A DNA stretch of 64,000 bases, from positions 704,001-768,000 of the forward strand of contig CAXXLL010000002.1 in the NCBI GenBank assembly GCA_963662545.2, read 5' to 3'. The DNA is from Gammaproteobacteria bacterium (GTDB lineage: Bacteria; Pseudomonadota; Gammaproteobacteria; Ga0077536). Under the pieces are notes generated by a model that was not told where the DNA came from, searched no databases, and saw only the letters and a program-made list of their open reading frames with translations. Shown here piece after piece: positions 1,678 through 57,156 of the stretch (position 1 is its first letter; each line of letters opens with the position of its first letter). The translations under genes and the position numbers were made by a program.

Positions 1678-1991
1678 GTCCGCTCAGGGTCCAGTCCGCT
1701 CTCCAGTGTGAAAACTCAAAAATACGACGACGAAATAAAAATATTCCCCACCAGCATAGTTGTTATGCCCCTCGAATAGGGATCGGCATTTCAATTAGAT
1801 CCAATTTCGAGGGTAGTTCCCCCACTTTTGAAAAATGAAAATAGTTTTCACACACTCTGGGTCGTCAGCCGCCTTATCGCGGCAGTGCAGCACTGCTCTA
1901 GATTACGTCTGGAGTTCCCTCGATAGCGGTCATCCCGACGATTCCAATGCAGTGCTGAGGGAGGGGGCGGCTCACGGCCACAAGCGGCCAT
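1678..1991 (+). repeat. Multi-hairpin dispersed repeat copy R1, interrupted by a MITE at 1692-1859
   Basis: gtccgctcagggtc|MITE|ggtcgtcagccgccttatcgcggcagtgcagcactgctctagattacgtctgga..tagcggtc..ggccacaagcggcc. Confidence 0.9.
1692..1859. mobile_element. Non-autonomous IS1182-like MITE
   Basis: Ends gtgtgaaaactc / agttttcacacactctg match the IRs of the IS1182 at 9067-10751; GGTC on both sides. Confidence 0.75.
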
Positions 1992-2028
1992 CGCGACCAG
2001 GCAAAAGGCAAGATCTGACCCTTAGAAT

Positions 2029-2223
2029 CTAATATTGCTTCGGACCGGACACGGAATGCACTGAGCCGGAATTAGATTTGCTCGGCGCGACGATCTGACC
2101 GTCTGCATTCGCTGAGACCTGACTGCCGATGAAAAGCAGATTATCGACGAGCCAAACCTGCGAGATTGAGACTGGTATCGGCCAGTCCCAGTGACCGGTA
2201 GGCATCAATCGCTTATTCCGCAC
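2029..2223 (-). pseudogene. RidA/YjgF family N-terminal fragment
   Basis: SQVWLVDNLLFIGSQVSANADGQIVAP resembles a RidA N-terminus; truncated. Confidence 0.55.
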
Positions 2224-2246
2224 TTCCCGTCCCTCCTAATCTTTAT

Positions 2247-3631
2247 GGGTCTACGCGGAAACGTGTGGGTTGATATTGGCATTTCTGGGTAGTGGCGGAA
2301 GAAATGCCGCAATGATTTTCAGTTTGAGGAATTCCTCATCACGATAGCCATAGGCGCGTCGTTGCAGGACCCGGATTTTGTTGTTGACCCCTTCGACCAA
2401 TCCAAGACTGACTTTATTCTTAGCATCACAATAGGAAGCAATGCCATCCCAATGGGATTCAATCAGCTCAGCAAACTTGCGATACGGCGCCAATCGCTGC
2501 CATTTCAGACTGTCCTTCCAGCGCTCGAAAAAGGCACGCGCGCCGCGCTCGGTACGGTAGTCCCAGAGTTGGCCGAAGGTTTCCTTGAGGACGTAGGCGG
2601 TGTTCAGACGCCGGTTGGCCTGGAGCAGTTTTTTCAGGGCTCGTCTGCCATCCAGATTCAGGTTCTCGCGTCGCGAGAGCAAGGTATATCGCTGGCCTTT
2701 GATGTAACTCCTGTCCTTGCCGCGGAGACGTTTGTATTCACGGCGCCGGACTTCATCGAGAGCCTTTGAGAGGTGGCGCATGATATGGAACTTGTCATAG
2801 ATGATCCGCGCCTGCGGTGCGTTGTTCATGACCGAGTTACGGAACGGCTTCCACATGTCCATCGCCGCCAGTTCGATGCGAGCGCTCTTGTTCTCGCCCA
2901 ATGCCTGGAAAAACAGGTCGATGTCAGCCTCTTTGCGACCTTCACCACCGACCCAGATAGGACGCCCCCGATCCAGGTCACTGACGATGACCCGGTAGTT
3001 ATGTCCTTTGCGGATGGAGATCTCATCAATACCGATGGCCCGGGGTGCTGGCATGCCCGCCAGCTCAACCTGCTTTTGCATGTACAGCTTATCGAGGTCT
3101 TTCACCGTGCTGTGGTGCAGGCGTTCCCTCTCGGCGACAGCCTGGTTCGGCATGTCCCGGCACAGCTTGCCCACCTGCATGGCAAAGCGCTGCGTATAGC
3201 GAGGGTTCTTTGCCAGCCAGTCAAGATGTTCTACCTGCACGCCGCCGCACCTCCGGCAACTGACACGCCAGCGTTCGAACTCCAGGTAGATTCGCCATCC
3301 GGCAACTGACAGGTCTCGTACTCGCAGCACCTTCTTGTCGTAACGCCCGCGGCACCGGTGAGCACAGTGAGAACAGATCGCTGTTTTTTTCGCCTCTTGA
3401 GTTGGATCACACGGGCATACCGATCACCAAACATGCCCACCAATTTCGATGCGGCGGTAAAACCAGGGAACGCAAACAGCGCTCGGATCGACTTGGGATT
3501 CTTCATGGCCCTAGCCTACCCACAAAATGAAACCACTTTCACCCCATACGAAATCTCTGAATGTCTACATGATTTCAATGGTTTACACTTGGTCTAATTC
3601 AGAATTTACCCATATGAATCCGCGTAGACCC
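2247..3631 (-). mobile_element. ISL3-family IS, copy 1
   Basis: IRs gggtctacgcgga / tccgcgtagaccc; 8-bp target duplication ATCTTTAT. Confidence 0.95.
2251..3506 (-). CDS. ISL3 transposase (two ORFs joined by a probable -1 frameshift)
   Basis: IGIDEISIRKGH, MDMWKPF, DKFHI, EGVNNKIRVLQRRAYGYR; A7 slippery run at 3384-3390. Confidence 0.9.
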
Positions 3632-3668
3632 ATCTTTATAATACCCAGTTCATCCGGGACCGACCTGC

Positions 3669-4715: not shown

Positions 4716-4910
4716 AGATTCGCCCGCAAGCGTGCGTATGAAGGATCAATTTGTGCCTGACATCCATCGCGGAAAGTTTAGACGTCGTTACACTTCAACC
4801 GGCGCATCCGGCCTACTGGATCAACAAGACGAATCGAAATCTAATCAGACACTGACCGCTATCTCACCCGCCACAGGGATTGGTGTCAGGTCTTGCCTTT
4901 TGCCCGTGAT

Positions 4911-5035
4911 ATCCGGAATGGGTCAGCGGCCTGATCGCGGCAGTGGAGGAGTGCTCTAGATTATGTCTGCAGTACCCTCCATAGCGGTCGCGCAGTAGCG
5001 TTCAACAGAACGTTAATGGAGCTGTTCGGCTCCTA
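4911..5035 (+). repeat. Multi-hairpin repeat copy R2
   Basis: gggtcagcggcctgatcgcggcagtggaggagtgctctagattatgtctgcagtaccctccatagcggtcg. Confidence 0.88.
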
Positions 5036-5162
5036 TTACCTTGACGGAAATGTAATACAGAAGATTTCACTTAGCAGCCCCGATCAGCTGTCCAATCGAT
5101 GGGGTCCACCTCTCTGGCGGATACGGTGTTAATGGGCACCTATTGTCGGTCACAATAAGGCG

Positions 5163-5948: not shown

Positions 5949-6330
5949 AATGTAGAAGTTCACGCTTGATCGCAATTGGAGAAAAGGGACTGTTTTCTAT
6001 ATCGATTCGGAATACCCGCATCACCGAAAGGAGACGTTGAAATATTTGTGCTTGTACGGCTGGAGTGGGTCCTTTCCGGCCTCCTCGCGGCACCGGAGCA
6101 CTGATTAGGGTTAAGTCTGCAATTCCCTCAGAAGCGGGCATAAACTTCTTCACACTCTGCAAAAGAAAACCCCGCACTGAGGCGGGGCTTCGTATGCTGA
6201 TAAATGACTTGGGAGCGTTCATCGAAACCTGTGACACACGCCGCGGCGGTCTAGAAGGCAAATCGACTTAGATACATATCCATTTAAATGGTTAACTTGT
6301 AAGTACCCAGTCGCGATATCCCGGCTCCCT

Positions 6331-6777: not shown

Positions 6778-6859
6778 AGCGTGCCCTCCAACATTGGGTA
6801 GACGGTCATGATACTGCGGCGGGAGTGGCGATAAAAGAGAACGCGCTGGGGCCCATACC

Positions 6860-8140
6860 ATGGGGTCGTATCCGGCCCCATCGCGGCACTGCAGCACTGC
6901 TCTAGTGTGCTGTCCCGCAAAGAAGTTTCGAAAGTCGGGCGAGTTTTTTCAAGATTGAATCGGCGGTTGCGGTCCATGCGAAAGGCACGGGGTTGGCGTT
7001 GTGCTGAGCAATATAGTGCTCGATACACGCAATGAGTTCTTTCACCTTTCGGAATGAACCGCGCTTGATAGCGCGCTGACTGATGAGACCAAACCAACGT
7101 TCGACCTGGTTGAGCCATGCAGCGTAGGTTGGCGTAAAGTGGACGTGAAATCGAGGTCGGCGAGCGAACCAGGCACGGACTTTCGGATGCTTGTGCGTGC
7201 CATAGTTGTCCATCACCAGATGCACATCCAGGTCGGCCGGAACGTTTTTCTCGAGGTGCTTGAGGAAGGACAGAAATTCCTGATGACGATGCCGCGCTTT
7301 GCACTGCCCGATGACGGTGCCGTTGGCGATATCGAGCGCCGCGAACAACGTGGTCGTGCCGTGCCGGAAGTAATCATGCGTGACGCCCTCGACATAACCG
7401 AGCCCCATCGGCAGAACCGGCTGACTGCGTTCCAGTGCCTGGATTTGGGTTTTTTCATCCACACACAAAACCAGCGCATTATCGGGTGGATTCAGGTACA
7501 AGCCGACGATATCGCGCACTTTCTCGACCAAGAACAGGTCGGTAGAGAGCTTGAACGTGCGGCTGCGATGCGGCTGGATCCCGAACAACGTGAAATAGCG
7601 ATGAACCGTACTCTTCGAGGGCTCGCTCACGCGTGCAAACGAACGGGTGCTCCAATGGGTCGCGTCCTCCGGTTGCTCGCGCAGCGATCAAGCGCGCAAC
7701 CTCATCGTCGTCATACGTCCGCCGACGATGACCCGGCGGCAGGTCATACAATCCGGCGACCCCGTTGGCGATATACCGGCGACACCAATTCGTGACCGTC
7801 GGATTGGACACATCGAGCTTTCTGGCAAGCGCGCTGTTAGACAGCCCATCGGCTGCCATCACGACGATCTTTGCGCGCCGTGCCAGCGCATGCGGCAGAC
7901 TGCGCGACCTCGCGTAACTGTTGAGGACCTCGTGTCCCTCCTCGCTCAGTTTAACCGTAAAGGATCTGGGTCGACCGCTAACCATCGCCTTGCTCCTGCA
8001 TGACACAATAGCCGATCTGATCATCACGACTTATGAAAGTTCATCGTGGGACAGCACACTAGATTACGTCTGCAATCCACTCAAGAGCGGTCGTCGAGTT
8101 GGTATCTTCGCCTTGCCGTGGGTGCACTGCGGCAGTCCTC
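6860..8140 (+). repeat. Multi-hairpin repeat copy R3, split by IS630 (halves 6860-6904 and 8060-8140)
   Basis: ggggtcgtatccggccccatcgcggcactgcagcactgctcTA|IS630|TAgattacgtctgcaatccactcaagagcggtcgtc. Confidence 0.9.
6905..8059 (-). mobile_element. IS630-family IS with frameshifted transposase (ORFs 7479-8027 and 6902-7630)
   Basis: IRs gtgtgctgtccc / gggacagcacac; TA duplication; VDEKTQIQAL, MDNYGTHK, WLNQVERWF. Confidence 0.93.
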
Positions 8141-8917: not shown

Positions 8918-9066
8918 GTTACTACCTCCTCATGCCGCTGGGGTGAACGTGCGCGGTCAGCGGAACGAGCGCGCGGCTCTACTCGAGTATATAGGCAAGA
9001 AAAGCGGGGTTGTAAGTACAGAAATTTTGGGGTCAGGGTAAAAACCCATTAGGACCGCTTCGGGTC

Positions 9067-10751
9067 CAGAGTGTGTGAAAACTCGGAATGAAGAGGAATC
9101 ACGTCGAGAACTCCTCGTCAGACGCAACGCGGCGCGGTTACGACGGCCGCGCTCGCGGTCCAATGCGATCGGTTAGTTAATGGAACATTCCTTAGAACGG
9201 CCCCAGAAGCCGGCAGTGAAGCCGTGGATCAGGGAGTTTTCGAGGCCACAGAGGGTCTCATGCCGTCATCGCTTCGATGAGCGTAGCGACACCCAGTAGA
9301 TTCATCACGCGTTTCATGTTGTAAGCGAGCACGTGCAGACTCATTTCCGTACCAACGTGTTTCAGCGTGCGCATCTGGAAGTGGGTCGAACCCATCCAGG
9401 ATTTGATCGTGCCAAATGGATGCTCGACCGTCTCTCGGCGGACACGCATAGGGTCAGGTTCACGATCCAATCGCGCCTGCACCGCTTCAACAACCGCTTC
9501 ATGTTCCCAACGGCTGACGCGCCGGTATCGACCCGTTGTGCATTTAGATTTGATCGGGCAGCGGGGACACGCCGAACTCCAGTAGCGCCGGATCTGCTTG
9601 CCTTTCTCCACTCGGGTGAACCGGTAAATCAGTCGCTCACCGGCCGGGCATTCATACGCATCCTCTTCGGGTTGGTAAATGAAGTCGCGCTTGCCAAACA
9701 AGCCCTTCGCCTGGTTACCCGAGGTCTGCGGTTTCGGCAGATAGGTCGTGATGCCGGCTTTAGCGCACGCCAAGATCTCTTCGCCACTGAAGTACCCGCG
9801 ATCCGCAACGACGGTCAACTCCTTCTTATCCAGCGCCTCTTTGGCTTTCTCCGACATGTTCGACAGTTGCGCCCGGTCATGACCTACGTTCGTCACTTCA
9901 TGTGCCACAATCAGATGACTCTTCGTGTCGACCGCCGTCTGCACGTTGTACCCCACCATGCCGCTGCCACGGCCGCTCGTCGCCATCGAGCGCGCGTCCG
10001 GGTCCGTCAGTGAGACCTGATGGTCCGGCGTCTCCTCGAGCCGTACCTCGAGCTTTTTTAGGCGGCCTATCTCTTCCTTCAGTACCTCGATCTTGTCCTT
10101 CAAACGCTGCGACTTGTCACCTGACACCGCACGCTCCTGGCGGTCGGCACTTGCAATTTCCGCCAGGTACCGCTCAACGCTCTCGTCAATCTGCTGCAAC
10201 CGACGTTTCAGCTTCGCCTTCGTGAAGTTCCGGTCACGGTTGTTTACCGCTTTGAACTTGCTGCCATCTATCGCCACGAAGGCTTCCGAAAACAGCTGCA
10301 GCTTACGGCACAGCATCACGAACTCCCGGCATACCAGACGAATGGCGTCACCGTTATCTTTGCGGAAATCGGCAATGGTCTTGAAATCAGGCGCCAGACG
10401 ACCCGTCAGCCACATCAGTTCCACGTTCCGCTGCGCCTCCCGTTCCAGGCGACGGCTCGATTGAACCCGGTTCAGGTAACCGTAGATATAGAGCTTCAGC
10501 ATCGTCGCCGGGTGATACCCCGGTCGACCCGTCTCATGCGCATCGGTTCTGAAACTCAGACCTGACAGATCCAACTCATCGACGAACACATCGATGACCC
10601 GCACCGCACTCTCCTCAGCGACATAATCGTCCAGACACTCGGGAAACAGCGTTGTTTGGCGGCGGTCCGCGCCTTCAATGAACCCGCTCATCAACGACTC
10701 CCCAGGACCGAAAGAGTGATCTTATCTGATGCAGAGTTTTCACACACTCTG
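9067..10751 (-). mobile_element. IS1182-family IS
   Basis: IRs cagagtgtgtgaaaactc / gagttttcacacactctg; 4-bp duplication GGTC. Confidence 0.92.
9258..10694 (-). CDS. IS1182-family transposase
   Basis: GRPGYHP..LYIYGY, SSRRLE, PDFKTIADFR, AIDGSK, ADRGY, VEHPFGTIK. Confidence 0.95.
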   Translation of the reverse strand: MMSGFIEGADRRQTTLFPECLDDYVAEESAVRVIDVFVDELDLSGLSFRTDAHETGRPGYHPATMLKLYIYGYLNRVQSSRRLEREAQRNVELMWLTGRLAPDFKTIADFRKDNGDAIRLVCREFVMLCRKLQLFSEAFVAIDGSKFKAVNNRDRNFTKAKLKRRLQQIDESVERYLAEIASADRQERAVSGDKSQRLKDKIEVLKEEIGRLKKLEVRLEETPDHQVSLTDPDARSMATSGRGSGMVGYNVQTAVDTKSHLIVAHEVTNVGHDRAQLSNMSEKAKEALDKKELTVVADRGYFSGEEILACAKAGITTYLPKPQTSGNQAKGLFGKRDFIYQPEEDAYECPAGERLIYRFTRVEKGKQIRRYWSSACPRCPIKSKCTTGRYRRVSRWEHEAVVEAVQARLDREPDPMRVRRETVEHPFGTIKSWMGSTHFQMRTLKHVGTEMSLHVLAYNMKRVMNLLGVATLIEAMTA

Positions 10752-10951
10752 GGTCGTCAGCGGTCCCCTAGTCGCAGTGCAGCAATGTTAATCGTCACGT
10801 CTGCAATACACTCATAAGCGGTCTTCTAGTAGCGTTCGACGGCGGGATTATTGTGGACGGCGGCTCTCAGCCGAGGACGTGGCGGGAAAGTCGTGCTACC
10901 GGACCTTTCCGTCCGTTGTCCGGCAGACAAGCGAAGCGCCCGGCTGGAACT

Positions 10952-12571: not shown

Positions 12572-12716
12572 TGATCGCAAAGTGGTCGTCAGCGGCCTCG
12601 TCGCGGCATCGCCGCACTGCTAAGGTTTACGTCAGCAATGCGCTTGAAAGCGGTCGTTCGGCGGCGTTCAGTGGGGCGTTAAGCGAGGACTTCGGCTCCC
12701 GGGCAAGAGCGGTCGC
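12572..12716 (+). repeat. Multi-hairpin repeat copy R5
   Basis: ggtcgtcagcggcctcgtcgcggcatcgccgcactgctaaggtttacgtcagcaatgcgcttgaaagcggtcg. Confidence 0.88.
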
Positions 12717-12792
12717 CCGCGCGCGAAACCCGTCGGAAATTTCCGTGGGTATACAGCGGTCCATCCGACATAATCGGTTAACCGATTATGAG

Positions 12793-13854: not shown

Positions 13855-13987
13855 GCGATTTCTCCTTGAACTGGCTTGCCCGGAACGGTTTCATTAGCAA
13901 CTATAAGAAGAACAAAGCCAAATATCGAATGGCCGGAACGGGTTGCGGATTCAACCGGTCGATGTAACACATTGGCTAAAACGCTGC

Positions 13988-14152
13988 GCCGGTGTTACCA
14001 AGGCACGGTGCTTGCTGTTGGGCGCGAACACGCCATGACAAATTCATCAGGAGTGAATTTGGACGCACGCAGTGCGCCCGTAGGGCGCGCGCCAGGGATG
14101 GCGCGCATCCAACCTTGTCAGGTTCACTCTGGGCTTGGGCACCAGCGCCACC
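13988..14152 (-). pseudogene. IS91/ISCR transposase remnant carrying a palindromic insert
   Basis: Near-identical to 19880-19980 (ALVPKPRVNLTR..HGVFAPNSKHRALVTP). Confidence 0.85.
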
Positions 14153-14434
14153 AAGCAGGCGCTCAAGCTGTATCCGTGGATCTGCGGGCGTTGTTCGCGC
14201 GAGTTCACCCACGCCAATCTGCACGAGTTGACCGTCCATCATCGCGACCACGATCACGACAATAACCCGCCGGACGGCAGCAACTGGGAACTGCTATGCC
14301 TTTACTGCCACGATAACGAGCACCAGCGGATGGTCGCAGAGCACGGAGCGCCTGAGCAATCGGCCGACGCCAAGGACGACAGCGCGACGCATCGGCCGTT
14401 TCCCGGACTCGACGAGATATTAAAGCGCGACTAA
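14153..14434 (+). pseudogene. yajD: YajD-family HNH nuclease, 5' end replaced by the ISCR remnant
   Basis: QALKLYPWICGRCSREF..LTVHHRDHDHDNNPPDGSNWELLCLYCHDNEH; no native start. Confidence 0.75.
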
Positions 14435-17258: not shown

Positions 17259-19170
17259 TTAATGTGGCAATGCCAGATCTCGGTACCATAGCTGCCGGGT
17301 CGTCGTAGCCCGGCTTGCAACTATCCAACGACCGTCTGGGGAGACTTGCGGCATTAGAAGATTACCTCGCATTGAATGCGTAAGCTTCTCGACCTTCCCG
17401 CCCGAGGCCGACACCCGAAAGAGCTGATATCGACCATCGATACGGCCCGAGAACACTATGGTGCGGCCGTCTGGAGACCAATCTAGACCAGTAAACGTCG
17501 TGCTGTTGAATTCTGCAATCTTACGCGTCTCCCGGCTTTCTAAATCAAGCAGAATTATCCGATGCACATCTCCGAGCGCCCAATCTTCAACCGCAATGAT
17601 GTCCGCTACGGGCGACCAATATTGCATGCGTGCATTCTCGATGTCGCCAGGCGTCCCGATCCATTCGACATTCTGCCTAGCGCCCGTCTCAGGGTCGATC
17701 GTTATAAGGACTAATTCGGTAACGAACGTCGGCCCACCCTGCCGCCAAGACGATAGGATAAAACGTCGACTGTCAGGCGCCCAATCCGCTAGACCAACCT
17801 CCCACAGCGTTGGCGGAGTCACATGGATCTCTTCCTCAATTCCCGCGCCTTCGCGCAGTAATGCGAGACCGTCGCGACAAATTTCCCCCCAGCCATGCAG
17901 GTAATGTGGCACCGAATGGTCGCAGCGATGCGTGTGATACAGCATCCATCGGCCGTCAGGCGACCACGCAGGCGTAAAGTCTTCGTGGTTGCCAACGATC
18001 AGCATCTCAGGTGGCGCGAGGACTCTCGCCTGAGTATCAACCTTCACCGCGGCAACGTCGTATAACATGGCGCTGTCGATCACTCGATTATCGCCAATCG
18101 TGTAGGCAATGCGTTTTCCATCGGGTGACCAGTAAGGCAATGATCCATTCTCAGCGACCAGCCGTGCGCGGCCACCGTTGAAGGGTACAACTACGATATC
18201 GTTCTCGAGAGCACTGCGGGTCCAATACAAAGACGTTCCTACGACGACGGGAGAAAAATCGTCGAACGGTGAATCGACGATTTTCTGAAGCGAACGGTTC
18301 GAGAGCTTGAACACGTATATATCAAGGTCCCTGTCGGGAGGATTTGGTACGTGCCGCGATTCGACCGATGGTTGTCCATCGCTCGCGAGGCTTAGATAAA
18401 TTAGTCCTCCAATCTTATCGACGCCGATTGAGGTTGAATTCGCGGCGGCGTCAAGTTCCCCTAGAAGCGGGGTAACCCGCCCCAGCGGAACATCAACCTC
18501 GACAAGCGACCCCAATCCAGTTTCAAAATCGTGTAGTACGACCGCAAGTGCGCGATCCGAAAGCCATTCAACTGCCACGATGCGACCATTCAGCTCGATC
18601 GTTTTGAGTGCTTCCGGCGTACCCACATTTAGGTGATTCCAGTCGGTGTGGCGTAGGAAGTAATGACCGGCACGAAAGAACGCGACCTGCGTTCTGCTTT
18701 CGTCCCAACGCTGTATGATGTTGCTGGGTAGCGACTCGATTGCCGCGGCGCCAGGAATATCCGTTTGCCAACCGTCGCCTGTGACCGGCACGAAAGAACG
18801 CGACCTGCGTTCTGCTTTCGTCCCAACGCTGTATGATGTTGCTGGGTAGCGACTCGATTGCCGCGGCGCCAGGAATATCCGTTTGCCAACCGTCGCCTGT
18901 ATCAAATGCGACGGTATCCTTCGATCCGACGAAGGCCGCAAATTGAGCGCCCTCGGGGATGCCGTCCAATAATCGGCCTGTCGCGAGGTCGACCATGCCG
19001 AACTGGGGCCCTCGTCCAAAGGTAGCCAGCTTTTCATCGGACGATACGGCCAGTTCAGTCGGATATGAGAATATCCAACCTCCGATCTGATCTTCATAAA
19101 TCAATCGGTCTGCGTTTGCGACTGCGCTGAAAATCATTGTGACTAGAGCGCCAGTCATCTTTCGTCGCAT
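17259..19170 (-). pseudogene. Secreted TolB-like/PD40 beta-propeller protein, frameshifted by a 118-bp tandem duplication
   Basis: Repeated WSPDG motifs; signal peptide MRRKMTGALVT; duplication 18664-18781 / 18782-18899. Confidence 0.8.
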
Positions 19171-21875: not shown

Positions 21876-21920
21876 CTCGGGTCCAAAAAAATCAATAACG
21901 TGGATAATGCAGCGCAACAA

Positions 21921-28255: not shown

Positions 28256-28301
28256 CTCCTTCAGGAATATGCTATCGATTCGTCATTTAGGGGGCAAAAA
28301 A

Positions 28302-28973: not shown

Positions 28974-29095
28974 GTCCCGTTGATGGGTCGTCAGCGGCCT
29001 AATCACGGCAATGCAGCACCGCTCTAAATTGCGTCTGCAATGCGCTCCATAACGGTCGTCCTATTGTTTTAAGCGTCGCGCTCGAAGCCAGTCCT
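28974..29095 (+). repeat. Multi-hairpin repeat copy R8
   Basis: gggtcgtcagcggcctaatcacggcaatgcagcaccgctctaaattgcgtctgcaatgcgctccataacggtcgtc. Confidence 0.9.
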
Positions 29096-29108
29096 CGGTA
29101 CCTGCAGT

Positions 29109-29435
29109 TCATTCGGTCGGGAGCGCGGGGACGATGTTCGTGTCAGAGCGGGTGCGCAGGGTCTCGTACTCGGTGCCTGCGGGCGGGGGGGTGTCGGTTA
29201 TGTTCCAGTTGCCCTGCACGTCGCGCCATTTATAAGCCTGTGTCACGGTCTGGGGCCGTTCCAGCGGGGTGCCCTTCAGCATCTTCTCGATACGGGCCTG
29301 CTCGAAGACGTAAACGTAGGTACCGGCAGCGCCCAGCACGAGCAACAGCAGCAGCCAACGCCAAGGAACTCGCCACTTGCGCTCGGGCGTAGTGTCGGCG
29401 AACTCAAACTGCTGAAAGCGATCGTCGCGCGCCAT
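29109..29435 (-). CDS. DUF4124-like small membrane protein (sole gene between R8 and R9)
   Basis: TM helix then YKWRDVQGNWNITDTPP. Confidence 0.7.
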   Translation of the reverse strand: MARDDRFQQFEFADTTPERKWRVPWRWLLLLLVLGAAGTYVYVFEQARIEKMLKGTPLERPQTVTQAYKWRDVQGNWNITDTPPPAGTEYETLRTRSDTNIVPALPTE

Positions 29436-29649
29436 GCTCGTCTACCCTCTCGAAGCGCCGGCGAACCAGCCGAACGATACGGGCCTGCTCGAAGACGTAA
29501 ACGTAGGTACCGGCAGCGCCCAGCACGAGCAACAGCAGCAGCCAACGCCAAGGAACTCGCCAGTTGCCCTCGCGCGCCATGCTCGTCTACCCTCTCGAAC
29601 GGCGAACCAGCCGAACAATTTAGCCAATGCGTTGCGTCGATCGGTTGAA

Positions 29650-29778
29650 ACCGCAGTCGATAGCCGCCGAATTGCGGTAGCGCAGCACTATTTTAGATTA
29701 CGTCTGCAATCCTCTCGTAAGTGGTCGTCCAATAGCGTTAGGGAGCGCGACTATGAAGAGCGGCAACAGTCGGCCATT
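29650..29778 (+). repeat. Multi-hairpin repeat copy R9
   Basis: gtcgatagccgccgaattgcggtagcgcagcactattttagattacgtctgcaatcctctcgtaagtggtcgtc. Confidence 0.85.
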
Positions 29779-29844
29779 TGCAGACTATATAACCCAATTT
29801 CAGGCAGGCGCTTGCGTAGCTGAAATAAGAGAGCCCGCCTCGAC

Positions 29845-30446: not shown

Positions 30447-30677
30447 CCAGGCGTTACCGCTCCATGGTGCCAAATGCGGAGATGCCTCGGAAGAGCGTGC
30501 GGACCTCAGTCGGCGGCGCGATGCAAAAACTCCGATAGGCGTCCACGATGGGGAGTCATCATTTTGGGCCGAATTGCAGGTCATTATCGACCTTCCGTTG
30601 GGATCCTTTCCAACACCGCGCCAATTATCGAGTCGGTTGAAACGCCCTCAACCTTGCCGCCGCGTCTTTTTCTCTCC

Positions 30678-31991
30678 TTAGAAGAACACAAAGGATCGCA
30701 CGACAACGTTTTTGCGGCAGGGAGCGTCGTTGGGCGCGGTCGTGTCGACACAGGCCGTGTGGAAGGACCAGCGCGAGACGGAGCCGTCGGTGACGGAGTC
30801 GTAGCACTTGAGCATCGAGACCTCGGTGGGCTTTTGCTGCGGAAGCCAGTACCACTCGTGGTCGGGCCTGTAGGTGAAGCGAGTAGTCTCGCCAACGCGG
30901 TCGTCGTAGACGCGATAGCTGGTGATGTAGGGCTGGTCGGCGAACGAGGGCCAGGCGCAGAGCACGAAGGGGTTCTGACGCACGGTTTCCATCGGCTTGG
31001 CAAGATTGATCGACATGAACCGCCGCGACATCTTCGCGTCGGCCTGCTCTTCCGTATAGTGCTGTTCGCGCCCGAAGTTCCGCAGGTTTCTCGTAAGGAG
31101 CTCGCGGCAGCGGACACGGCCGCTGTTGTCGTTCAGGTCGTTGTGTACGATGTTGGCGTAGAAGTTGTTCACGCCCGGATTCTTGTTATCCTGGTCCTCC
31201 GTGCGGTCGCCCGCATAGTCCTTGTCAAACACGTCGTGGTTGTACACGAGCGCATCCGTCGCGCCCGGGAAGAATTCCAAGAGGAGCTTTTCCATCTCGG
31301 GATAGAACACCCGCTCCACCTCGGCAGCGTCGTAGAAGTTCTCGCACTTGGACTCGCAGTGCGCCAACGAGACTCCGAGCTTGTCCATGCACTCGGGGCT
31401 ATAGGGCGAGAGGCCAGGGTAGTACTCCTCGATTCGTCGCGCGTCGCGCATCACCTGCGGGAAATAGAGGCGTCGCCGCTCGATGTCTTCCTCTTCCTTA
31501 CGCAACGCGTTGGCCTCGGCGTCGCGCGCGTGGTCGCGCCAGAATGCGTTGGACGTGACGATGGTGTAGGACGGCCGCTCGTGGATGGTGTAGCGAAGCG
31601 GAACCGCCAGACCGCCTTCAGGGGATTCGATGGCGCTCGCCCGAATATGTTCCACGCACTCCGAGTAGGTCCGAAATCCGACGCCCCACTTGGTCTCGAT
31701 GGGGCCGGGGGGAGCGTTGTCGAGCATGTCGATGATTGCCTGCCCCTCCCCCTCGGCAATCTGGAGGAGCGCCGCCTCTGTCGCCGCCGCCGTTCCCGCA
31801 TCGCCATCCTGATCGAACGACATGTAGGACAAGCCTCCGTTCGCGGCGATGGGCGGTGGCTGCCCTTCTGTGAGTTCGAGGGGAGGCACATAGGCCGATG
31901 AAACTGCCTCCGTATCTGCCGCGACGTGGTTCGTCATGTCTTTGAGCTGGTCCATTACATGCACCCGATTAGATAGACCCCATCTTGGCAC
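30678..31991 (-). CDS. CmcJ/NvfI-like oxidoreductase
   Basis: VFYPEMEKLL, VHND, HEWYWLPQQKPTEV..KCYDS, FHTA..RKNVVVR. Confidence 0.65.
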   Translation of the reverse strand: MPRWGLSNRVHVMDQLKDMTNHVAADTEAVSSAYVPPLELTEGQPPPIAANGGLSYMSFDQDGDAGTAAATEAALLQIAEGEGQAIIDMLDNAPPGPIETKWGVGFRTYSECVEHIRASAIESPEGGLAVPLRYTIHERPSYTIVTSNAFWRDHARDAEANALRKEEEDIERRRLYFPQVMRDARRIEEYYPGLSPYSPECMDKLGVSLAHCESKCENFYDAAEVERVFYPEMEKLLLEFFPGATDALVYNHDVFDKDYAGDRTEDQDNKNPGVNNFYANIVHNDLNDNSGRVRCRELLTRNLRNFGREQHYTEEQADAKMSRRFMSINLAKPMETVRQNPFVLCAWPSFADQPYITSYRVYDDRVGETTRFTYRPDHEWYWLPQQKPTEVSMLKCYDSVTDGSVSRWSFHTACVDTTAPNDAPCRKNVVVRSFVFF

Positions 31992-32054
31992 ACGAGACTT
32001 TTACTTCCCAGGGATGCTCACGGCGTATTTGGGGTCAGTGTAAAAACTCGCGAA

Positions 32055-32145
32055 GACCGCTTCGGGTCGGTAGCCGCCTGATCGCGGCAGTGCAGCACTA
32101 GTAAGGATTACGTCTGCAGTACCTTCAATAGCGGTCGCCGAGTTG
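32055..32145 (+). repeat. Multi-hairpin repeat copy R10
   Basis: gaccgcttcgggtcggtagccgcctgatcgcggcagtgcagcactagtaaggattacgtctgcagtaccttcaatagcggtcg. Confidence 0.9.
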
Positions 32146-32226
32146 AAGCAAAAAGCAAGACCTTGACCCGGCAGCCCCTAAGGGGCAAAGCGCGGGCACG
32201 CTGGTCTTTATCTATTGCTTAAATAT

Positions 32227-32964: not shown

Positions 32965-33107
32965 AAAATTTTCTCCACCGAACTAACTCATCAACTAATC
33001 AACCTGTACAAGTAGAGCAGCATTGCGAGTCCCTCTGTTCAATTCGGGTTAATTGTTAAAGTACTCTAACCAGCAACAAATCGATTCGCACGGCTGCAGC
33101 TTCGCTG

Positions 33108-33250
33108 ATGTAGCCTTAGGGTCGTGAGCCGCCTGATCGCGGCGGTGCAGCACTGTTGTAGATTACGTCTGGAATAACCTCGGAAGCGGTCGTCCATTAG
33201 CGTTTGGCGACGTGAGCGTGACGAGCGGCGGCTCTCGACCAATATCGAAC
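33108..33250 (+). repeat. Multi-hairpin repeat copy R11
   Basis: gggtcgtgagccgcctgatcgcggcggtgcagcactgttgtagattacgtctggaataacctcggaagcggtcgtc. Confidence 0.9.
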
Positions 33251-33332
33251 TCGATCATGCTCGCTGCCAATTTTTACTCTGGCCCCATTTATTTATCGAG
33301 TTGAACCGGCTCCGCCTTACACAGCGTCGCTC

Positions 33333-35552: not shown

Positions 35553-35891
35553 TGAGTTTGCCGGCGCATTGTCTTAGACAAGTGATCGTGTTCGATAACC
35601 GATTTTGACACTACCATAAACCTACGCAGCACCAAAACCATCTATCGGTGACATCCGAGTTTCACCAAGAATAGCAAAAACAAACGCTGTTTATCCCGAT
35701 TTTCAACAATGAATCGAGTCGCTACCCAGTGTAACCGACCGTTCGCTCTACTGAGCTGGATATTTGACGGTCGCCGCTTGTGGAAAGGCCGCAGTAACAC
35801 GCGGGTTATCGTTGCGCCAGGAACCTGTTGCAATCCGGAACGAGACGACTATAGATCGCCCGTTAACGGACGTACACCACCGCGAAAGCCA

Positions 35892-35985
35892 ATGAGCACA
35901 AACGGTCGTCAGCGGTCTCCACGTGGCAGTGCAGCACTTTCAAAGATTATGTCTGGAATGCCCTTGAAAGCGGCCATCCTGCTTC
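35892..35985 (+). repeat. Multi-hairpin repeat copy R12
   Basis: ggtcgtcagcggtctccacgtggcagtgcagcactttcaaagattatgtctggaatgcccttgaaagcggcc. Confidence 0.88.
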
Positions 35986-36116
35986 TGTAGACATTATTGC
36001 TTGGGCGACTTTGATCTTGAGCAGGAGCGAACGTTCACTGTCTTAGCCTCAACCGCTATGCTACCGACTCGTTATAGAAGCGAGGTTTGAATCATGAATA
36101 GCAGAGGAACGCACAC

Positions 36117-37176: not shown

Positions 37177-37219
37177 CACTGCCCCGGCATTTGACTGTTC
37201 TCTTCCTTCGCTGCCGCTG

Positions 37220-37365
37220 ATGTCCGCAATGATCGTCAGCGGCCTCCTCGCCGCAGTGCAGCACTGATTAGCGTTTTGTCTGCAATTCTCTCCATAGCGG
37301 TCGTTAGCGGTCGTTCTGTTGCTTCGAGCTTCGTGCCCCAAGCCCACTTCGGCTTACGGCCGAGG
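37220..37365 (+). repeat. Multi-hairpin repeat copy R13, fused to a half attC (37171-37219)
   Basis: atgtccgcaatgatcgtcagcggcctcctcgccgcagtgcagcactgattagcgttttgtctgcaattctctccatagcggtcg. Confidence 0.9.
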
Positions 37366-37771
37366 GCGTGTGAAAAGAACAGTATTGTTACGCAAATCGG
37401 GGAGTGATCGAAAACGCGCTCAAATTTTTGTGTCACTAAGTGACATTAGTAGTAGCGGCACAGTCGTTCGAGTTTCTGTTTTTCCCAGGGCTCAATGCAA
37501 CCCCGGCATGCAATGAGAATCCTGATGCTTTGGCATCGCGCTCGCAGATTTTTTGGTCGCCATGTGCGGCACCGGGCACAATAAGCGTTGCAGCACATAG
37601 TTTAGTGCGAAAAATTCAAACGAGGAGCGATTATGCCGACACCGACAAAAAGCGGCGTGGCTATTCGGATGGCTGATCACCCGACACGAGAGCCTGCATG
37701 CTGAACGGCAGACATCGTCAGCTGATTCACACCGCCTCGGTTCACACCTGAAGATTAAGGAGGACAAAAAA

Positions 37772-38533: not shown

Positions 38534-38622
38534 ATGGGCCGGCCACTTTCCGCATTTCACTCCGCGTAGACGTGAATTCCGCTCGCCTCGTAGGGCGGAA
38601 TTGCTGGAGTATAAGAAAAACA

Positions 38623-40007
38623 GGGTCTACGCGGAAACGTGTGGGTTGATATTGGCATTTCTGGGTAGTGGCGGAAGAAATGCCGCAATGATTTTCAGTT
38701 TGAGGAATTCCTCATCACGATAGCCATAGGCGCGTCGTTGCAGGACCCGGATTTTGTTGTTGACCCCTTCGACCAATCCAAGACTGACTTTATTCTTAGC
38801 ATCACAATAGGAAGCAATGCCATCCCAATGGGATTCAATCAGCTCAGCAAACTTGCGATACGGCGCCAATCGCTGCCATTTCAGACTGTCCTTCCAGCGC
38901 TCGAAAAAGGCACGCGCGCCGCGCTCGGTACGGTAGTCCCAGAGTTGGCCGAAGGTTTCCTTGAGGACGTAGGCGGTGTTCAGACGCCGGTTGGCCTGGA
39001 GCAGTTTTTTCAGGGCTCGTCTGCCATCCAGATTCAGGTTCTCGCGTCGCGAGAGCAAGGTATATCGCTGGCCTTTGATGTAACTCCTGTCCTTGCCGCG
39101 GAGACGTTTGTATTCACGGCGCCGGACTTCATCGAGAGCCTTTGAGAGGTGGCGCATGATATGGAACTTGTCATAGATGATCCGCGCCTGCGGTGCGTTG
39201 TTCATGACCGAGTTACGGAACGGCTTCCACATGTCCATCGCCGCCAGTTCGATGCGAGCGCTCTTGTTCTCGCCCAATGCCTGGAAAAACAGGTCGATGT
39301 CAGCCTCTTTGCGACCTTCACCACCGACCCAGATAGGACGCCCCCGATCCAGGTCACTGACGATGACCCGGTAGTTATGTCCTTTGCGGATGGAGATCTC
39401 ATCAATACCGATGGCCCGGGGTGCTGGCATGCCCGCCAGCTCAACCTGCTTTTGCATGTACAGCTTATCGAGGTCTTTCACCGTGCTGTGGTGCAGGCGT
39501 TCCCTCTCGGCGACAGCCTGGTTCGGCATGTCCCGGCACAGCTTGCCCACCTGCATGGCAAAGCGCTGCGTATAGCGAGGGTTCTTTGCCAGCCAGTCAA
39601 GATGTTCTACCTGCACGCCGCCGCACCTCCGGCAACTGACACGCCAGCGTTCGAACTCCAGGTAGATTCGCCATCCGGCAACTGACAGGTCTCGTACTCG
39701 CAGCACCTTCTTGTCGTAACGCCCGCGGCACCGGTGAGCACAGTGAGAACAGATCGCTGTTTTTTTCGCCTCTTGAGTTGGATCACACGGGCATACCGAT
39801 CACCAAACATGCCCACCAATTTCGATGCGGCGGTAAAACCAGGGAACGCAAACAGCGCTCGGATCGACTTGGGATTCTTCATGGCCTTAGCCTACCCACA
39901 AAATGAAACCACTTTCACCCCATACGAAATCTCTGAATGTCTACATGATTTCAATGGTTTACACTTGGTCTAATTCAGAATTTACCCACATGAATCCGCG
40001 TAGACCC
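38623..40007 (-). mobile_element. ISL3-family IS, copy 2 (transposase 38627-39882)
   Basis: Same IRs as copy 1; target duplication GAAAAACA. Confidence 0.95.
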
Positions 40008-40110
40008 GAAAAACAAGATGTCGGCTCGCGTCGGCTGTGCATCGCGCCGGTCGAGATGCTCGAGAATGCGTTGGATGACGGCGGGATCTTTGATGCGGGC
40101 AATGACTGCG
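40008..40110 (-). pseudogene. IS91/ISCR transposase C-terminal remnant
   Basis: VIARIKDPAVIQRILEHL; oriIS-like gagtataagaaaaaca at 38607 split off by ISL3 copy 2. Confidence 0.65.
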
Positions 40111-40198
40111 GAGCACTGTACCTGTGTGTGTGGCCTCTAGAACTATTTTCACGGTCGGGTTGGGCCGGAAGCAAGCGTTCTAAAACTGGAGCTCCGAG

Positions 40199-40263
40199 GT
40201 CCGCGTGGGGTCGTCAGCGGTCTGATCGCGGCAGTGCAGCACTGCTAAGCGCTATGTCTGCAC
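40199..40263 (+). repeat. Multi-hairpin repeat copy R14 (3' truncated)
   Basis: gtccgcgtggggtcgtcagcggtctgatcgcggcagtgcagcactgctaagcgctatgtctgca. Confidence 0.88.
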
Positions 40264-40843: not shown

Positions 40844-40867
40844 GTTCATATTTGAAGTGAAACATCC

Positions 40868-41622: not shown

Positions 41623-41935
41623 TTAGACTTCTGTCTGCTCAGCCATCTCAAGCGCGTCATCGACCTCGACCCGGATCTCCCTCTGCTCCGCAAGACGCCA
41701 GAATACTTTTCCCAATTCCCGGCGTATTTGACCAAATATCGCTTTCTTCCGGTACTTCGGAATGAACACGACGTGATACTTACACTTCCATCGGCTGTGC
41801 CTTAAACTCCCATCTAGTCTCATGATTGACTCCCTTTCGTGATGCTCTGGCGGCTCACGTCAGGGAGTCCGTCATGGGACTCCCGGAATTGTCAAACTTT
41901 TGCGGTCTCCCCAGCAGAGCTGGGGGGTTTACCAA
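41623..41935 (-). mobile_element. IS200/IS605 tnpA remnant with terminal hairpin
   Basis: HSRWKCKYHVVFIPKYRKK; ccccagcagagctgggg hairpin near 41910. Confidence 0.85.
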
Positions 41936-42093
41936 TCTGGGCTAAGGCGAAACAAATTATCCGACCATCACTTCCTTCGGAAAACGTGCACCGTAGGACA
42001 CCAAAGTATTTGGTAATGATCGGTTACTTATGACCCCCTTAGTAACTTGTCAGTACCTTACCGACCGCGACACCCAATCCAAGGGATCTTCAC

Positions 42094-44668
42094 GTGCCAT
42101 TGAGAGACTGTGCCCGCTACTGGTTCCTGCCTCGCATCCTCGCGCTACTTTTTGTATCGGCGGCGATCTCTGAGGCAGTGTCGGCGCAAACCGATGAATT
42201 AGATCAAGTCCGCAATCTGCTACTCGTTTCCGAAGCCACCTCGGTTGCCCGGGACCTGAGCGTTTCCGACGACATGTTCGATCAAATAGCGGCTGTCGCG
42301 GTGCTGGCCGACGTCGGTGATAAGGCGGCGATCGAGTTTCTCGCCGCTGGGCTTGAGTCTACGGATTTCCTCTACCAACGTGCTGTGGTCGACACACTAT
42401 TGAGTCTGCGCAGCGCAGACGGTGTCGAAGTCTTACGTCGCTATATGGAGGCCGCTGAGGACCTGGGCTTTTTGCGCTATCTGATGGAATCGCTTGCCTC
42501 CCATCCGCTCCCGGTAATGATAAGTTTTCTGGGTCTACGCGGAAACGTGTGGGTTGATATTGGCATTTCTGGGTAGTGGCGGAAGAAATGCCGCAATGAT
42601 TTTCAGTTTGAGGAATTCCTCATCACGATAGCCATAGGCGCGTCGTTGCAGGACCCGGATTTTGTTGTTGACCCCTTCGACCAATCCAAGACTGACTTTA
42701 TTCTTAGCATCACAATAGGAAGCAATGCCATCCCAATGGGATTCAATCAGCTCAGCAAACTTGCGATACGGCGCCAATCGCTGCCATTTCAGACTGTCCT
42801 TCCAGCGCTCGAAAAAGGCACGCGCGCCGCGCTCGGTACGGTAGTCCCAGAGTTGGCCGAAGGTTTCCTTGAGGACGTAGGCGGTGTTCAGACGCCGGTT
42901 GGCCTGGAGCAGTTTTTTCAGGGCTCGTCTGCCATCCAGATTCAGGTTCTCGCGTCGCGAGAGCAAGGTATATCGCTGGCCTTTGATGTAACTCCTGTCC
43001 TTGCCGCGGAGACGTTTGTATTCACGGCGCCGGACTTCATCGAGAGCCTTTGAGAGGTGGCGCATGATATGGAACTTGTCATAGATGATCCGCGCCTGCG
43101 GTGCGTTGTTCATGACCGAGTTACGGAACGGCTTCCACATGTCCATCGCCGCCAGTTCGATGCGAGCGCTCTTGTTCTCGCCCAATGCCTGGAAAAACAG
43201 GTCGATGTCAGCCTCTTTGCGACCTTCACCACCGACCCAGATAGGACGCCCCCGATCCAGGTCACTGACGATGACCCGGTAGTTATGTCCTTTGCGGATG
43301 GAGATCTCATCAATACCGATGGCCCGGGGTGCTGGCATGCCCGCCAGCTCAACCTGCTTTTGCATGTACAGCTTATCGAGGTCTTTCACCGTGCTGTGGT
43401 GCAGGCGTTCCCTCTCGGCGACAGCCTGGTTCGGCATGTCCCGGCACAGCTTGCCCACCTGCATGGCAAAGCGCTGCGTATAGCGAGGGTTCTTTGCCAG
43501 CCAGTCAAGATGTTCTACCTGCACGCCGCCGCACCTCCGGCAACTGACACGCCAGCGTTCGAACTCCAGGTAGATTCGCCATCCGGCAACTGACAGGTCT
43601 CGTACTCGCAGCACCTTCTTGTCGTAACGCCCGCGGCACCGGTGAGCACAGTGAGAACAGATCGCTGTTTTTTTCGCCTCTTGAGTTGGATCACACGGGC
43701 ATACCGATCACCAAACATGCCCACCAATTTCGATGCGGCGGTAAAACCAGGGAACGCAAACAGCGCTCGGATCGACTTGGGATTCTTCATGGCCTTAGCC
43801 TACCCACAAAATGAAACCACTTTCACCCCATACGAAATCTCTGAATGTCTACATGATTTCAATGGTTTACACTTGGTCTAATTCAGAATTTACCCACATG
43901 AATCCGCGTAGACCCAGTTTTCTTATAGAGGCGCTCGACCATTATGACCCAGTGGTTAAAAAGTTCGCCCTGCAATCGCTCTCTCAGTTACATTTTGAGA
44001 ACCACGACTCACGAATTCACCTACTGGCGAGCGATGCCGGAGAAATCGTGCAGGTGCGGGCATACGCCTGGAATGTATTACTGGATTCGCCACATCGGCG
44101 AGAGTCGATCGAACGCCTGCTGGAAATGTCTCGGCTTGGAAGTCCCGAAGCAAAGGAAGTCGTGGCAGTGGCGCTCGGCCGTGTTGACACACCACGAACT
44201 CGCGAAGCATTGGTTGAGTTGATGTCGAGTAACGACAACCGCGTAGCGCTTGCTGCGCTTACAAGTTCTGCCGGGTTGCGGGATGAGGCAGCAGCGCGTG
44301 AGCTCGAATGGACCATCGTTTACGGTGATGGACTTCATCGTGCTGCCGCGGCTGGCGGACTAAAGCGTATCGACCCGGCGGTCGCCTCGCGTGTTACCGA
44401 GAACCTAATGTCCTGTTACCTGCTTGGTCCGTTCACGGGGATGCGCCTTGTCGAAGCGTGGGCCATGATCGATGCCGACCCAAGCACCGTATATGGTTGG
44501 GGTTTGTCCCACGAAGACGAAGGAGTTCGCATGCAGAGCATTTGGTTAATAGGTCAACGTCGCGATGTAGAATACTTAGAACGAGTTGCTGCCTTCCTCC
44601 GCGATCCGAGTCCTGCCATCCGAGGCCTCGCGGCGTGGGCGGTGTTGCGCCTGGCTAGAGGGCCATAG
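42094..44668 (+). pseudogene. HEAT-repeat exported protein interrupted by ISL3 copy 3
   Basis: HEAT-like repeats on both sides; frame restored across the AGTTTTCT duplication (VMISFLIEALD). Confidence 0.8.
42531..43915 (-). mobile_element. ISL3-family IS, copy 3 (transposase 42535-43790)
   Basis: Same IRs; target duplication AGTTTTCT. Confidence 0.95.
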
Positions 44669-44863
44669 CTTATCTAGCCTGTTACCAAAACCCCTGTGAC
44701 GCTCCCGAATGGACCGATTGCTGGCGCTGGCGGCCTAACGCCCACACAAACCGCCATTGGCGTAAAAAGGGGCAAGCACTTATTTTTGTCCGTTCCTATA
44801 TCTTCAAAAGGCAAAGAGGAAATAAGTGCGTCGCCTTTTGGGTGCTGCCGCGAATACGTAAAG

Positions 44864-45010
44864 GGCCGCTATATTGGGTCCATAGCCGCCTCATCGCTAC
44901 AGTGCAGCACCGTTCCAAATCACGTCTGCAATGCGCTCGTAAGCGGTTGTCGAATTGCTTCAAGCGTTAAGTCGAGAGGGTATGACGGTTTTCGGCCACA
45001 AGCAGTCCTT
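44864..45010 (+). repeat. Multi-hairpin repeat copy R15
   Basis: gggtccatagccgcctcatcgctacagtgcagcaccgttccaaatcacgtctgcaatgcgctcgtaagcggttgtc..ggccacaagcagtc. Confidence 0.88.
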
Positions 45011-57154: not shown

Positions 57155-57156
57155 CT

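Follow-up and report, generated by a model that had tools for sequence, protein, structure and literature searches.

How does a bacterium come to hold long rows of unrelated genes, set off from one another by copies of a single short repeat that all point the same way, at places in its genome that are remote from any integron integrase? The question is raised by a stretch of 64,000 nucleotides ("the window": positions 704001-768000 of contig C2 in G000, the 5.58-Mb, three-contig genome of a gammaproteobacterium) in which a repeat of about 150 bp, here called R, recurs between genes of unrelated function. To our knowledge, integrons have so far been essentially the only case of cassette arrays delimited by recombination sites. 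The array described here works like an integron array and stands outside that family: it is a cassette array bounded by recombination-type sites of a kind for which a literature search, conducted short of full texts, found no description. The reading that we rank first, and hold tentatively, is that R is a double-stranded site for site-specific recombination or for the landing of mobile DNA, and that it bounds exchangeable cassettes.

The polarity and the clustering of R have to be accounted for by any explanation. Two direct-repeat families stand out in the window, one with 15 copies (94 nt) and one with 16 (43 nt), on the + strand throughout, and a profile search (nhmmer) finds 16 copies of R, all on the + strand, between 1836 and 45026; three of these are split by insertion sequences (IS) or MITEs (miniature transposable elements with inverted repeats) and one is truncated. 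The original prediction, made from the letters of the window alone, had listed 15 co-oriented copies on the + strand; all 15 positions are recovered with that orientation, and one copy, at 6052-6234, had been overlooked. It had seen none after 45 kb, and the profile search likewise finds no R in the window downstream of 45026, where the last copy ends. Genome-wide, a first profile built from the window copies gave 121 matches and a second, built from 101 distinct copies, gave 123. These 123 matches fall into 21 clusters or solitary sites, which together cover 305,636 of 5,583,118 bases (5.5%), and neighbouring copies less than 20 kb apart are co-oriented in 99 of 102 pairs (the remaining three are opposed). 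Chance would come nowhere near producing such a distribution. An ordinary MITE or REP (repetitive extragenic palindrome) family, the explanation that the original prediction had set against its own, would be scattered in random orientation; R is clustered and co-oriented throughout the genome. The largest array (C2:612974-749011) contains that of the window and holds 39 copies, all on the + strand. R always lies between genes. The intervals between consecutive co-oriented copies (n = 99) measure 131-13,269 bp and the copies are only about 63% identical, in keeping with the earlier statement that these are not clustered regularly interspaced short palindromic repeats (CRISPR).

The cargo, by comparison, has no polarity. 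Among genes that are not multicopy, 99 face the same way as R and 100 the opposite way, and in single-gene cassettes the corresponding numbers are 18 and 21 (these counts use codon-usage gene calls made for this analysis, with 17 multicopy genes left aside). A GC content below 0.52 is found in 25 of 96 cassettes and in 24 of 480 length-matched random windows. The proposal that the copies delimit intervals of unrelated cargo, in either orientation and of deviant base composition, holds up on each of these counts.

What is R made of? The consensus of the 101 distinct copies has three sub-sites, each an imperfect dyad that reads G(T/G)C(C/T/G)GC-N11/12-AGCGG(C/T/A)C; they are set at intervals of about 58-61 bp and begin near profile columns 15, 72 and 134. 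The whole is bounded by ATGTCCGC ... GCGGACAT and has 8-bp inverted termini (the left terminus, ATGTCCGC, becomes apparent once IS and MITE insertions have been allowed for). Sub-site 1 reads GTCCGC-nnn-GGGTCGTC-AGCGGCC and is followed by the block ATCGCGGCAGTGC-A-GCACTGC, which contains a 15-bp central dyad, GCAGTGC-A-GCACTGC, placed between sub-sites 1 and 2, and then by AGATTAC; sub-site 2, GTCTGC-N12-AGCGGTC, gives way to a variable stretch of ~35 nt; sub-site 3 reads GGCGGC-TCTCGGCCAAG-AGCGGAC-AT. The three units (GWCCGC/GTCTGC-N11-AGCGGYC) and the palindrome that had been made out in the window are all to be seen in this larger consensus. The copies are old: their median pairwise identity is 0.63 (5th-95th percentile 0.54-0.74), none of 6288 pairs is more than 0.95 identical, and identical blocks shared between copies extend to about 20 nt at most. 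Conservation is nevertheless very uneven in these diverged copies (45 of 133 columns conserved at >=90%, 24 of 133 at <=50%), which we read as a mark of selection on particular bases.

The original prediction had taken R for a multi-hairpin, probably single-stranded element, and this part of it finds no support. DNA folds of five window copies, computed for both strands, are no stabler than dinucleotide shuffles in 10 of 10 cases (z -1.36 to +1.33), while an attC site of the same genome (L001:200-340), put through the same test, gives z -9.30 and -9.18. For the 101 copies, RNAalifold returns a consensus without a single pair, whichever strand is taken (energy 0.0), and 8-36% of copies no longer pair within the central dyad, where changes that would compensate are very few (at dyad columns 49/59, A-T in 66 copies and G-C in four). 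We propose that R is a double-stranded element that proteins recognise through its sequence, and not a folded single strand.

Three families of mobile elements have fixed insertion points in R: 1) An IS1182-family element (NF033551, 466 bits) and its 150-nt MITE insert at GGTC, the centre of sub-site 1, duplicating these four bases; 30 insertions of this kind in sub-site 1 are listed, and 13 of 14 copies of the IS and 21 of 22 copies of its MITE abut R (for ISL3, taken as a control, the figure is 4 of 19 copies). 2) A second MITE of ~149 nt, whose inverted repeats are related, goes into the corresponding centre of sub-site 3, at GGCC, and duplicates those bases; its 28 strand-wise matches amount to about 14 elements. 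3) A 2.5-2.8-kb element, referred to below as the recombinase-plus-IS91 element, encodes a tyrosine recombinase of 293-319 aa and, immediately after it, an IS91-family Y2 transposase of 384-397 aa (Pfam Y2_Tnp and Zn_Tnp_IS91; NF033538, 423 bits); six of its six copies are placed between GGCCA(A/G)nG and AGCGGNC of sub-site 3. These six are oriented as the array is, have at least four different left flanks, and include one that stands directly behind another; three of them head arrays, at the first R of the array to which the window belongs and at a degenerate R before each of the arrays designated G and J. The element's ends, GACTAAACCGCTnnCGCGGTA ... ACAACCCTAAAC, are conserved both in this genome and in G172, another genome of the class.

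Do the cassettes change places, and if so, where are they joined? Two other species of the genus, G001 and G002, allow a comparison. Array segments of G001 match arrays of G000 at 93-96% identity (G001:C14:8511-10171 against C2:1627117-1628774 is an example), and a cassette segment of the window (30544-32136, + strand; C2:734544-736136) is found at 93.4% identity at G001:C14:36085-37676, in another context; array segments of G002 match those of G000 at 95-97%. Segments of G001 outside arrays match G000 at about 75-85%, and the window's right flank matches at 67-76%. Cassettes shared between species are 91-97% identical overall, and this excess over the 75-85% outside arrays points to a shared mobile pool. 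(To the right of the array, G001 and G002 offer matches of only 67-76%, and with them no orthologous locus for a comparison of synteny.) Cassette order also differs between species: what reads Y-R-X in G000 (C2:247-251 kb) reads R-X-R-Y in G002. In 15 of 15 pairs of R copies that share one flank only, the switch from unrelated to 86-100% identical sequence falls inside R (the pairs were chosen so as not to rest on the elements labelled IS1675 and MITE150; two carry the sub-site 3 MITE). The switches occupy three zones, at about columns 29-42 (sub-site 1, AGCGGCC), 61-100 (which fits sub-site 2) and 132-150 (sub-site 3), each of which contains or adjoins an AGCGGNC. Pairs with both flanks shared number three only.

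Comparison of strains for gain or loss of cargo at R had been recommended by the original prediction. The close strains available for it are four other public sequencing runs, whose contigs over 21.5-41.4 kb of the window have the cassette order unchanged and differ by an ISL3 copy and small indels only. Joints between different R copies do turn up in these contigs, with sides of only 22-36 letters at 90% likeness; as candidate excision products they were rejected, such short sides being read instead as cross-alignment of other R copies. ISL3 itself is present in the window in three near-identical copies (about 38613-40008, 2237-3629 and 42521-43913), the first of which has a clean empty site in the contigs of all four runs. 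Two further observations concern the cassettes of G000. The segment C2:1112911-1113522 fills the whole of an R-R interval, and its 88.5% identical counterpart (G001:C14:30118-30729) is part of a longer interval, and R is not detected at its ends; this counterpart could be a pre-capture source sequence or a case of R loss. Large, near-identical segmental duplications at the end of C2 (2574-2591 kb), the start of C3 (1-16 kb) and C3:905-925 kb carry R cassettes together with the recombinase-plus-IS91 element, and may affect assembly of the contig ends.

A tRNA gene with a P4-type integrase next after it immediately adjoins each of the arrays designated A and M, and array J has tRNA-Ser for a neighbour, so that some arrays at least form the cargo region of tRNA-linked islands. 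With this setting in mind, the preferred mechanism can be put as follows. R would bound exchangeable cassettes of 0.5-5 kb and one to three genes within tRNA-linked islands of one methanotroph genus, and insertion or exchange would be orientation-specific, taking place at or beside the AGCGGNC motifs. Orientation-specific insertion at R would explain why the arrays are co-oriented although their cargo faces both ways. Polarity, confinement to islands, conservation of motifs and exchange of single cassettes inside R, taken together, are hard to explain otherwise than by a sequence- and orientation-specific process at R, and a recombination or landing role for the repeat fits both the context switches inside R and the precise insertion of three mobile-element families.

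The anatomy of R also has precedents. Res-like sites (the res sites of the Tn3 family, the internal recombination site (IRS) of Tn4430, cer and psi) are about 120-180 bp long, comprise several imperfect dyads a few helical turns apart, function only in direct repeat, and occur once per replicon or transposon, beside their recombinase. R resembles them in having several dyad sub-sites at helical-turn spacing; it differs in occurring 123 times with no cognate recombinase alongside, and in a genome that contains one resolvase fragment. The pdif modules of Acinetobacter plasmids and the neisserial dRS3 repeats and intergenic mosaic elements (NIME) are like the R arrays in that cargo bounded by short sites or repeats is exchanged between contexts. 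The Xer sites that make up pdif measure 28 bp and alternate in orientation, and dRS3 repeats are 20 bp long, in contrast with a strictly co-oriented, 150-bp R that has three sub-sites and no dif-like sequence.

Which enzyme might read R? A dedicated recombinase would be acting on it, and the best candidate in this genome, chosen by co-location only, is the Xer/IntI-like recombinase of the recombinase-plus-IS91 element. Just as possibly, that element is a further parasite of R, in the manner of the IS1182-family element. Against the integron-integrase model its recombinase aligns over positions 3-178 and 238-315, skipping the IntI-specific middle, and it scores below every curated cut-off. A preprint (10.1101/542381) places IS91-borne recombinases as the closest relatives of IntI that lack the IntI-specific insert, and a match that flanks this insert fits the placement given there. 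The more specific proposal that R arrays are an integron-independent cassette platform, in which a three-sub-site double-stranded site is served by an IS91-borne, Xer-like tyrosine recombinase, strikes us as quite unlikely.

The original prediction had also pointed to an IS91-type transposase, and in the form proposed, as the enzyme present in the window, the suggestion is not supported: what lies there is a decayed remnant antisense to R (19852-21400, - strand), comprising a Zn_Tnp_IS91 match on a 232-aa ORF (open reading frame; 20689-21387) and a 44.9-bit Y2 fragment (20113-20289). The lead survives in another form, since intact recombinase-plus-IS91 elements occupy sub-site 3 in the same array outside the window; the part that did not carry over is the other two species, in which they were not found. 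Four other IS91 fragments occur in arrays, all antisense. Stretches of 45-88 nt are common to the IS91 remnant in the window and to a site 6 kb upstream (13982-14167 and 19873-20626; 84-98% identity); one-ended transposition may have left a solo IS91 end at that upstream site.

Other sources of an enzyme were considered and set aside. P4-type integrases stand at the ends of arrays A and M and a recombinase of 180-200 aa is found near arrays L and O, neither being common to all arrays; for a resolvase, there is a single broken match in the genome. Close homologues of the Y2 transposase are present in 33 of 400 genomes of the class, G000 counted (three of the 33, G063, G164 and G330, are unpublished assemblies, on which no other result given here depends). 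R arrays were rejected as a general companion of recombinase-plus-IS91 elements because homologues in four genomes lack arrays, and the apparent repeats near the homologue in one of these, G138, proved to be paralogous coding sequence.

Several of these results, and some others, count against R as a recombination or landing site, or against the enzyme proposed for it. The 15 pairs with one shared flank were selected for precisely that property, so that the breakpoint had to lie near R. The switches do not fall at one base, and illegitimate or short-homology recombination would also resolve in conserved blocks. Neither the copies (no pair more than 95% identical) nor the unchanged order in four runs give a sign of recent activity. 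Some cassettes hold truncated genes, such as a Y2 fragment that ends ~25 nt from R at C3:2548483, and in this they differ from integron-style cassettes. As for the enzyme, the IS91 transposase query finds no match in G001 or G002, both of which carry R, and the recombinase query retrieves from them only Xer-like proteins at 29-36% identity (G002 has two tyrosine recombinases in all); G001 is 89% complete and G002 is in 150 contigs, so that IS copies may be unassembled in both. No repeat arrays surround the seven homologous elements in G172 (four copies), G276, G138 and G100, whose flanks are different, and the copies in G172 share conserved ends set in unrelated flanks.

What else might R be? 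The alternative that survives best, possible though to our minds distinctly less probable, is that R is a passive repeat of islands, akin to a bacterial interspersed mosaic element (BIME) and without a recombinase of its own, which serves as a harmless landing pad for IS, while cassettes are reshuffled on rare occasions when its conserved blocks recombine, illegitimately or through short homology. REP-type repeats are well-known targets of IS, and R has in common with REP, BIME, REPIN (REP doublets forming hairpins) and MITE sequences that it is short, intergenic, built of dyads, ended by 8-bp inverted repeats and specifically targeted by IS. A passive repeat would also sit well with the facts that in G001 and G002 R has no enzyme as a constant companion, that the breakpoints are spread over three zones coinciding with the most conserved blocks, that no copy is recent, and that cassette order is stable in four other runs. 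It leaves unexplained why neighbours are co-oriented in 99 of 102 cases and why R is confined to 5.5% of the genome. Recombination between copies, moreover, would have to make do with identical blocks of at most ~20 nt at a median identity of 63%, and blocks of that size are short for RecA-dependent exchange; single motifs so strongly conserved imply that R is read by something specific to its sequence. Families of the REP and MITE kind are scattered in random orientation, form hairpins and include recent, near-identical copies; R is clustered and co-oriented, is without the fold of REP and BIME units, has no pair above 95% identity, and is not flanked by a REP-associated tyrosine transposase (RAYT). 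The Y1 (RAYT-type) genes present in all three genomes nowhere adjoin R, the nearest full-length one (C2:805572) lying 56 kb from the array end; within the array there is only a 78-aa Y1 fragment, at 41668-41793 of the window.

A second alternative is that the arrays arise by serial capture through a rolling-circle (IS91/ISCR-type, where CR stands for common region) or similarly strand-specific transposon, R being the end signal, origin or terminator, of non-autonomous units, each of which inserts beside the previous one in fixed orientation and carries adjacent DNA along. We think this unlikely. It would account for the strict polarity of R and for randomly oriented cargo with genes truncated at cassette edges, read-through capture being expected to yield cargo of any orientation. 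The arrays also contain IS91-family genes: six recombinase-linked copies, of the subgroup with an upstream tyrosine recombinase, in the sense of the array, and four antisense fragments. IS91 inserts beside CAAG or GAAC, and the insertion point of the recombinase-plus-IS91 element comes after GGCCAAG. The closest item found in the literature is the IS91-family ISwz1, co-oriented copies of which are reported to flank resistance genes and to form circles (PMC11322121). What speaks against serial capture is R itself: its profile has no significant match in the ends and interiors of four recombinase-plus-IS91 elements (best E 0.55), which have separate conserved ends of their own (GACTAAACCGCTnnCGCGGTA ... 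ACAACCCTAAAC), and R does not form the hairpins with which an HUH transposon would be expected to end. The transposase query finds no IS91 homologue in G001 or G002, and close homologues elsewhere are solitary IS without arrays. (Derivation of R from the ends of these elements was rejected for the same lack of significant similarity; a 12-nt likeness between R and the element's left end, ATCGCGG(C/T)AGTG, is taken as anecdotal.)

That R is a cis-regulatory or RNA element between island genes (a terminator, insulator, small RNA or promoter cassette) is very improbable: for it speaks that R lies between genes in every case and keeps its motifs, but the 64-kb window has no Rfam match at gathering thresholds (a match that the original prediction would have taken as telling against it), there is no conserved structure, the orientation of R is unrelated to that of flanking genes, and R is absent from the 94.5% of the genome that lies outside arrays.

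The likeness to integrons is in the layout: long arrays of co-oriented, individually diverged sites between unrelated, often foreign, cargo, as in integrons and in clusters of attC sites lacking integron integrases (CALINs). R, too, attracts specialised insertion elements, as integron attC sites are the targets of IS1111-attC elements and group IIC-attC introns. The genome has two integrons for direct comparison. The first has intI at C2:996654-997670 and, upstream of it, at least ten classical attC sites of ~110 nt (C2:985242-995550) with CCTAAC...GTTAGG ends and folds of -40 to -48 kcal/mol; the second has intI at C3:1527128-1528210 and a single attC at 1524818-1524931. There is no R within 100 kb of either intI, the nearest of which is ~248 kb from R. 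The site differs from attC in its ends (ATGTCCGC ... GCGGACAT in place of RYYYAAC/GTTRRRY), in having no hairpin (z about 0 versus -9.3), and in its three sub-sites and apparently double-stranded form; the arrays differ in lacking an adjacent intI, in cargo that faces either way (99 versus 100), and in many multi-gene or fragment cassettes. The original verdict that R is not attC is confirmed by ends, fold, distance from intI and cargo orientation alike. That R is a divergent attC, with the arrays as CALINs left by the genome's integrons, can be given next to no credence: two integron integrases above the TIGR02249 cut-off and the cassette-like look of the arrays speak for it, but R lacks the ends, the fold and the proximity to intI, its cargo is not co-oriented, and, failing as it does every attC criterion tested, this reading was rejected.

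How widespread is R? BLAST finds it in two of two other species of the genus (G001 and G002) and in none of 38 further relatives. Stretches taken from G001 and G002 yield 24 copies by profile, co-oriented within each contig (14 on the + strand of G001:C14, for example). An exact 19-base R pattern has 13 single matches in unrelated taxa of a genome collection, and chance alone, as we calculate it, would give about 13; in a metagenome collection four contigs match a 20-base pattern, two of which have real R copies; a plasmid collection has no match to the exact pattern. On this distribution, R is restricted to one lineage.

If R is, as we prefer to think, a site on which a recombinase acts, the R arrays are a new bacterial way to stockpile and shuffle foreign genes, with the overall logic of an integron realised through a different site, without IntI and without attC features, and about 300 kb of a methanotroph genome is organised in this manner. 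If the enzyme should prove to be the IS91-borne recombinase, the locus would also bear on the origin of integrons: it would show what a double-strand cassette system from before integrons looks like, and IS91-borne recombinases would acquire a function. Even on a modest reading, R is one short site that is struck at fixed bases by at least three unrelated mobile elements, which makes it useful for the study of how transposons choose their targets.

The copies of the window can now be placed individually, all on the + strand. In copy 1, sub-site 1 has taken up, at its GGTC, the ~150-nt MITE derived from the IS1182-family element (1692-1859; its left inverted repeat is degenerate), which separates a left arm (ATGTCCGC...GGGTC, 1676-1691, recognised by its sequence and by an arrangement that is the same in the 30 listed insertions) from the main part (1836-2016; nhmmer, 130 bits). 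Repeat finding and the profile together define copy 2 (4907-5078), copy 3 (6052-6234, the one overlooked before) and the two halves of copy 4 (6858-6905 and 8053-8137), between which an IS630-type element with a DDE_3 transposase (PF13358) is inserted at 6906-8052 (- strand). Copy 5 has lost its left arm to a 1687-bp IS1182-family element (9066-10752, - strand; NF033551, 466 bits) at the GGTC of sub-site 1; the displaced arm, GACCGCTTCGGGTC followed by the IS inverted repeat, is at 9050-9065 and the main part, by profile, at 10731-10910. Three of the starts given in the original prediction are thereby explained: 1678 and 9052 mark the left arms of the copies split by the 150-nt MITE and by the 1687-bp IS1182-family element, and 6860 marks the left half of the copy split by the IS630-type element. 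The profile places the remaining copies at 12577-12744 (copy 6), 21920-22091 (copy 7), 28110-28278 (copy 8), 28982-29144 (copy 9), 29654-29814 (copy 10), 32052-32224 (copy 11), 33102-33279 (copy 12), 35887-36061 (copy 13), 37216-37396 (copy 14), 40197-40262 (copy 15, truncated within sub-site 2 and covering profile columns 15-80 only) and 44868-45026 (copy 16, the last of the array).

Next after copy 16 comes a pmoCAB-type operon (46939-50534, - strand). PmoB (PF04744, E 1e-126) is at 47694-48923, and the two ORFs upstream of it, at 48956-49690 (244 aa) and 49752-50534 (260 aa), would be pmoA and pmoC, to judge by order and size. The operon, just before which the array ends, marks the host as a methane or ammonia oxidiser.

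The cargo of the window has functions that, by Pfam and NCBIfam, are unrelated to one another: a histone-deacetylase-type enzyme, two luciferase-like monooxygenases, a MatE transporter, a WD40/PD40 propeller, a CDP-alcohol phosphatidyltransferase, a rhodanese, DUF1326 and DUF1329 proteins, SnoaL-like proteins, an acetoacetate decarboxylase and HEAT-repeat proteins are among them, together with several ORFs that fall into no family. The label "MerB-like" that had been attached to one cassette gene is not confirmed: the ORF at 8099-8836 matches no family in Pfam (E up to 0.001) or NCBIfam.

Some minor features of the window may be put on record. One cassette contains a 78-aa fragment of a Y1 (IS200/RAYT-type) HUH transposase (41668-41793, - strand). 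A pair of 102-nt repeats 187 nt apart (29288-29576) differs in length between public runs, one joint omitting 141 bases (29458-29600). Exact or near-exact tandem duplications are present at 18664-18899 (2 x 118 nt) and 57937-58330 (2 x 197 nt). A repeat of ~170 nt at about 46626-46800 has at least 40 copies in G002, on both strands and at 83-91% identity, and behaves as a dispersed MITE or REPIN, unlike R. Finally, the lower-GC right end of the window carries three copies (57119-57176, 58742-58799 and 60676-60733) of a 58-nt repeat with an internal dyad, 69-86% identical to one another.

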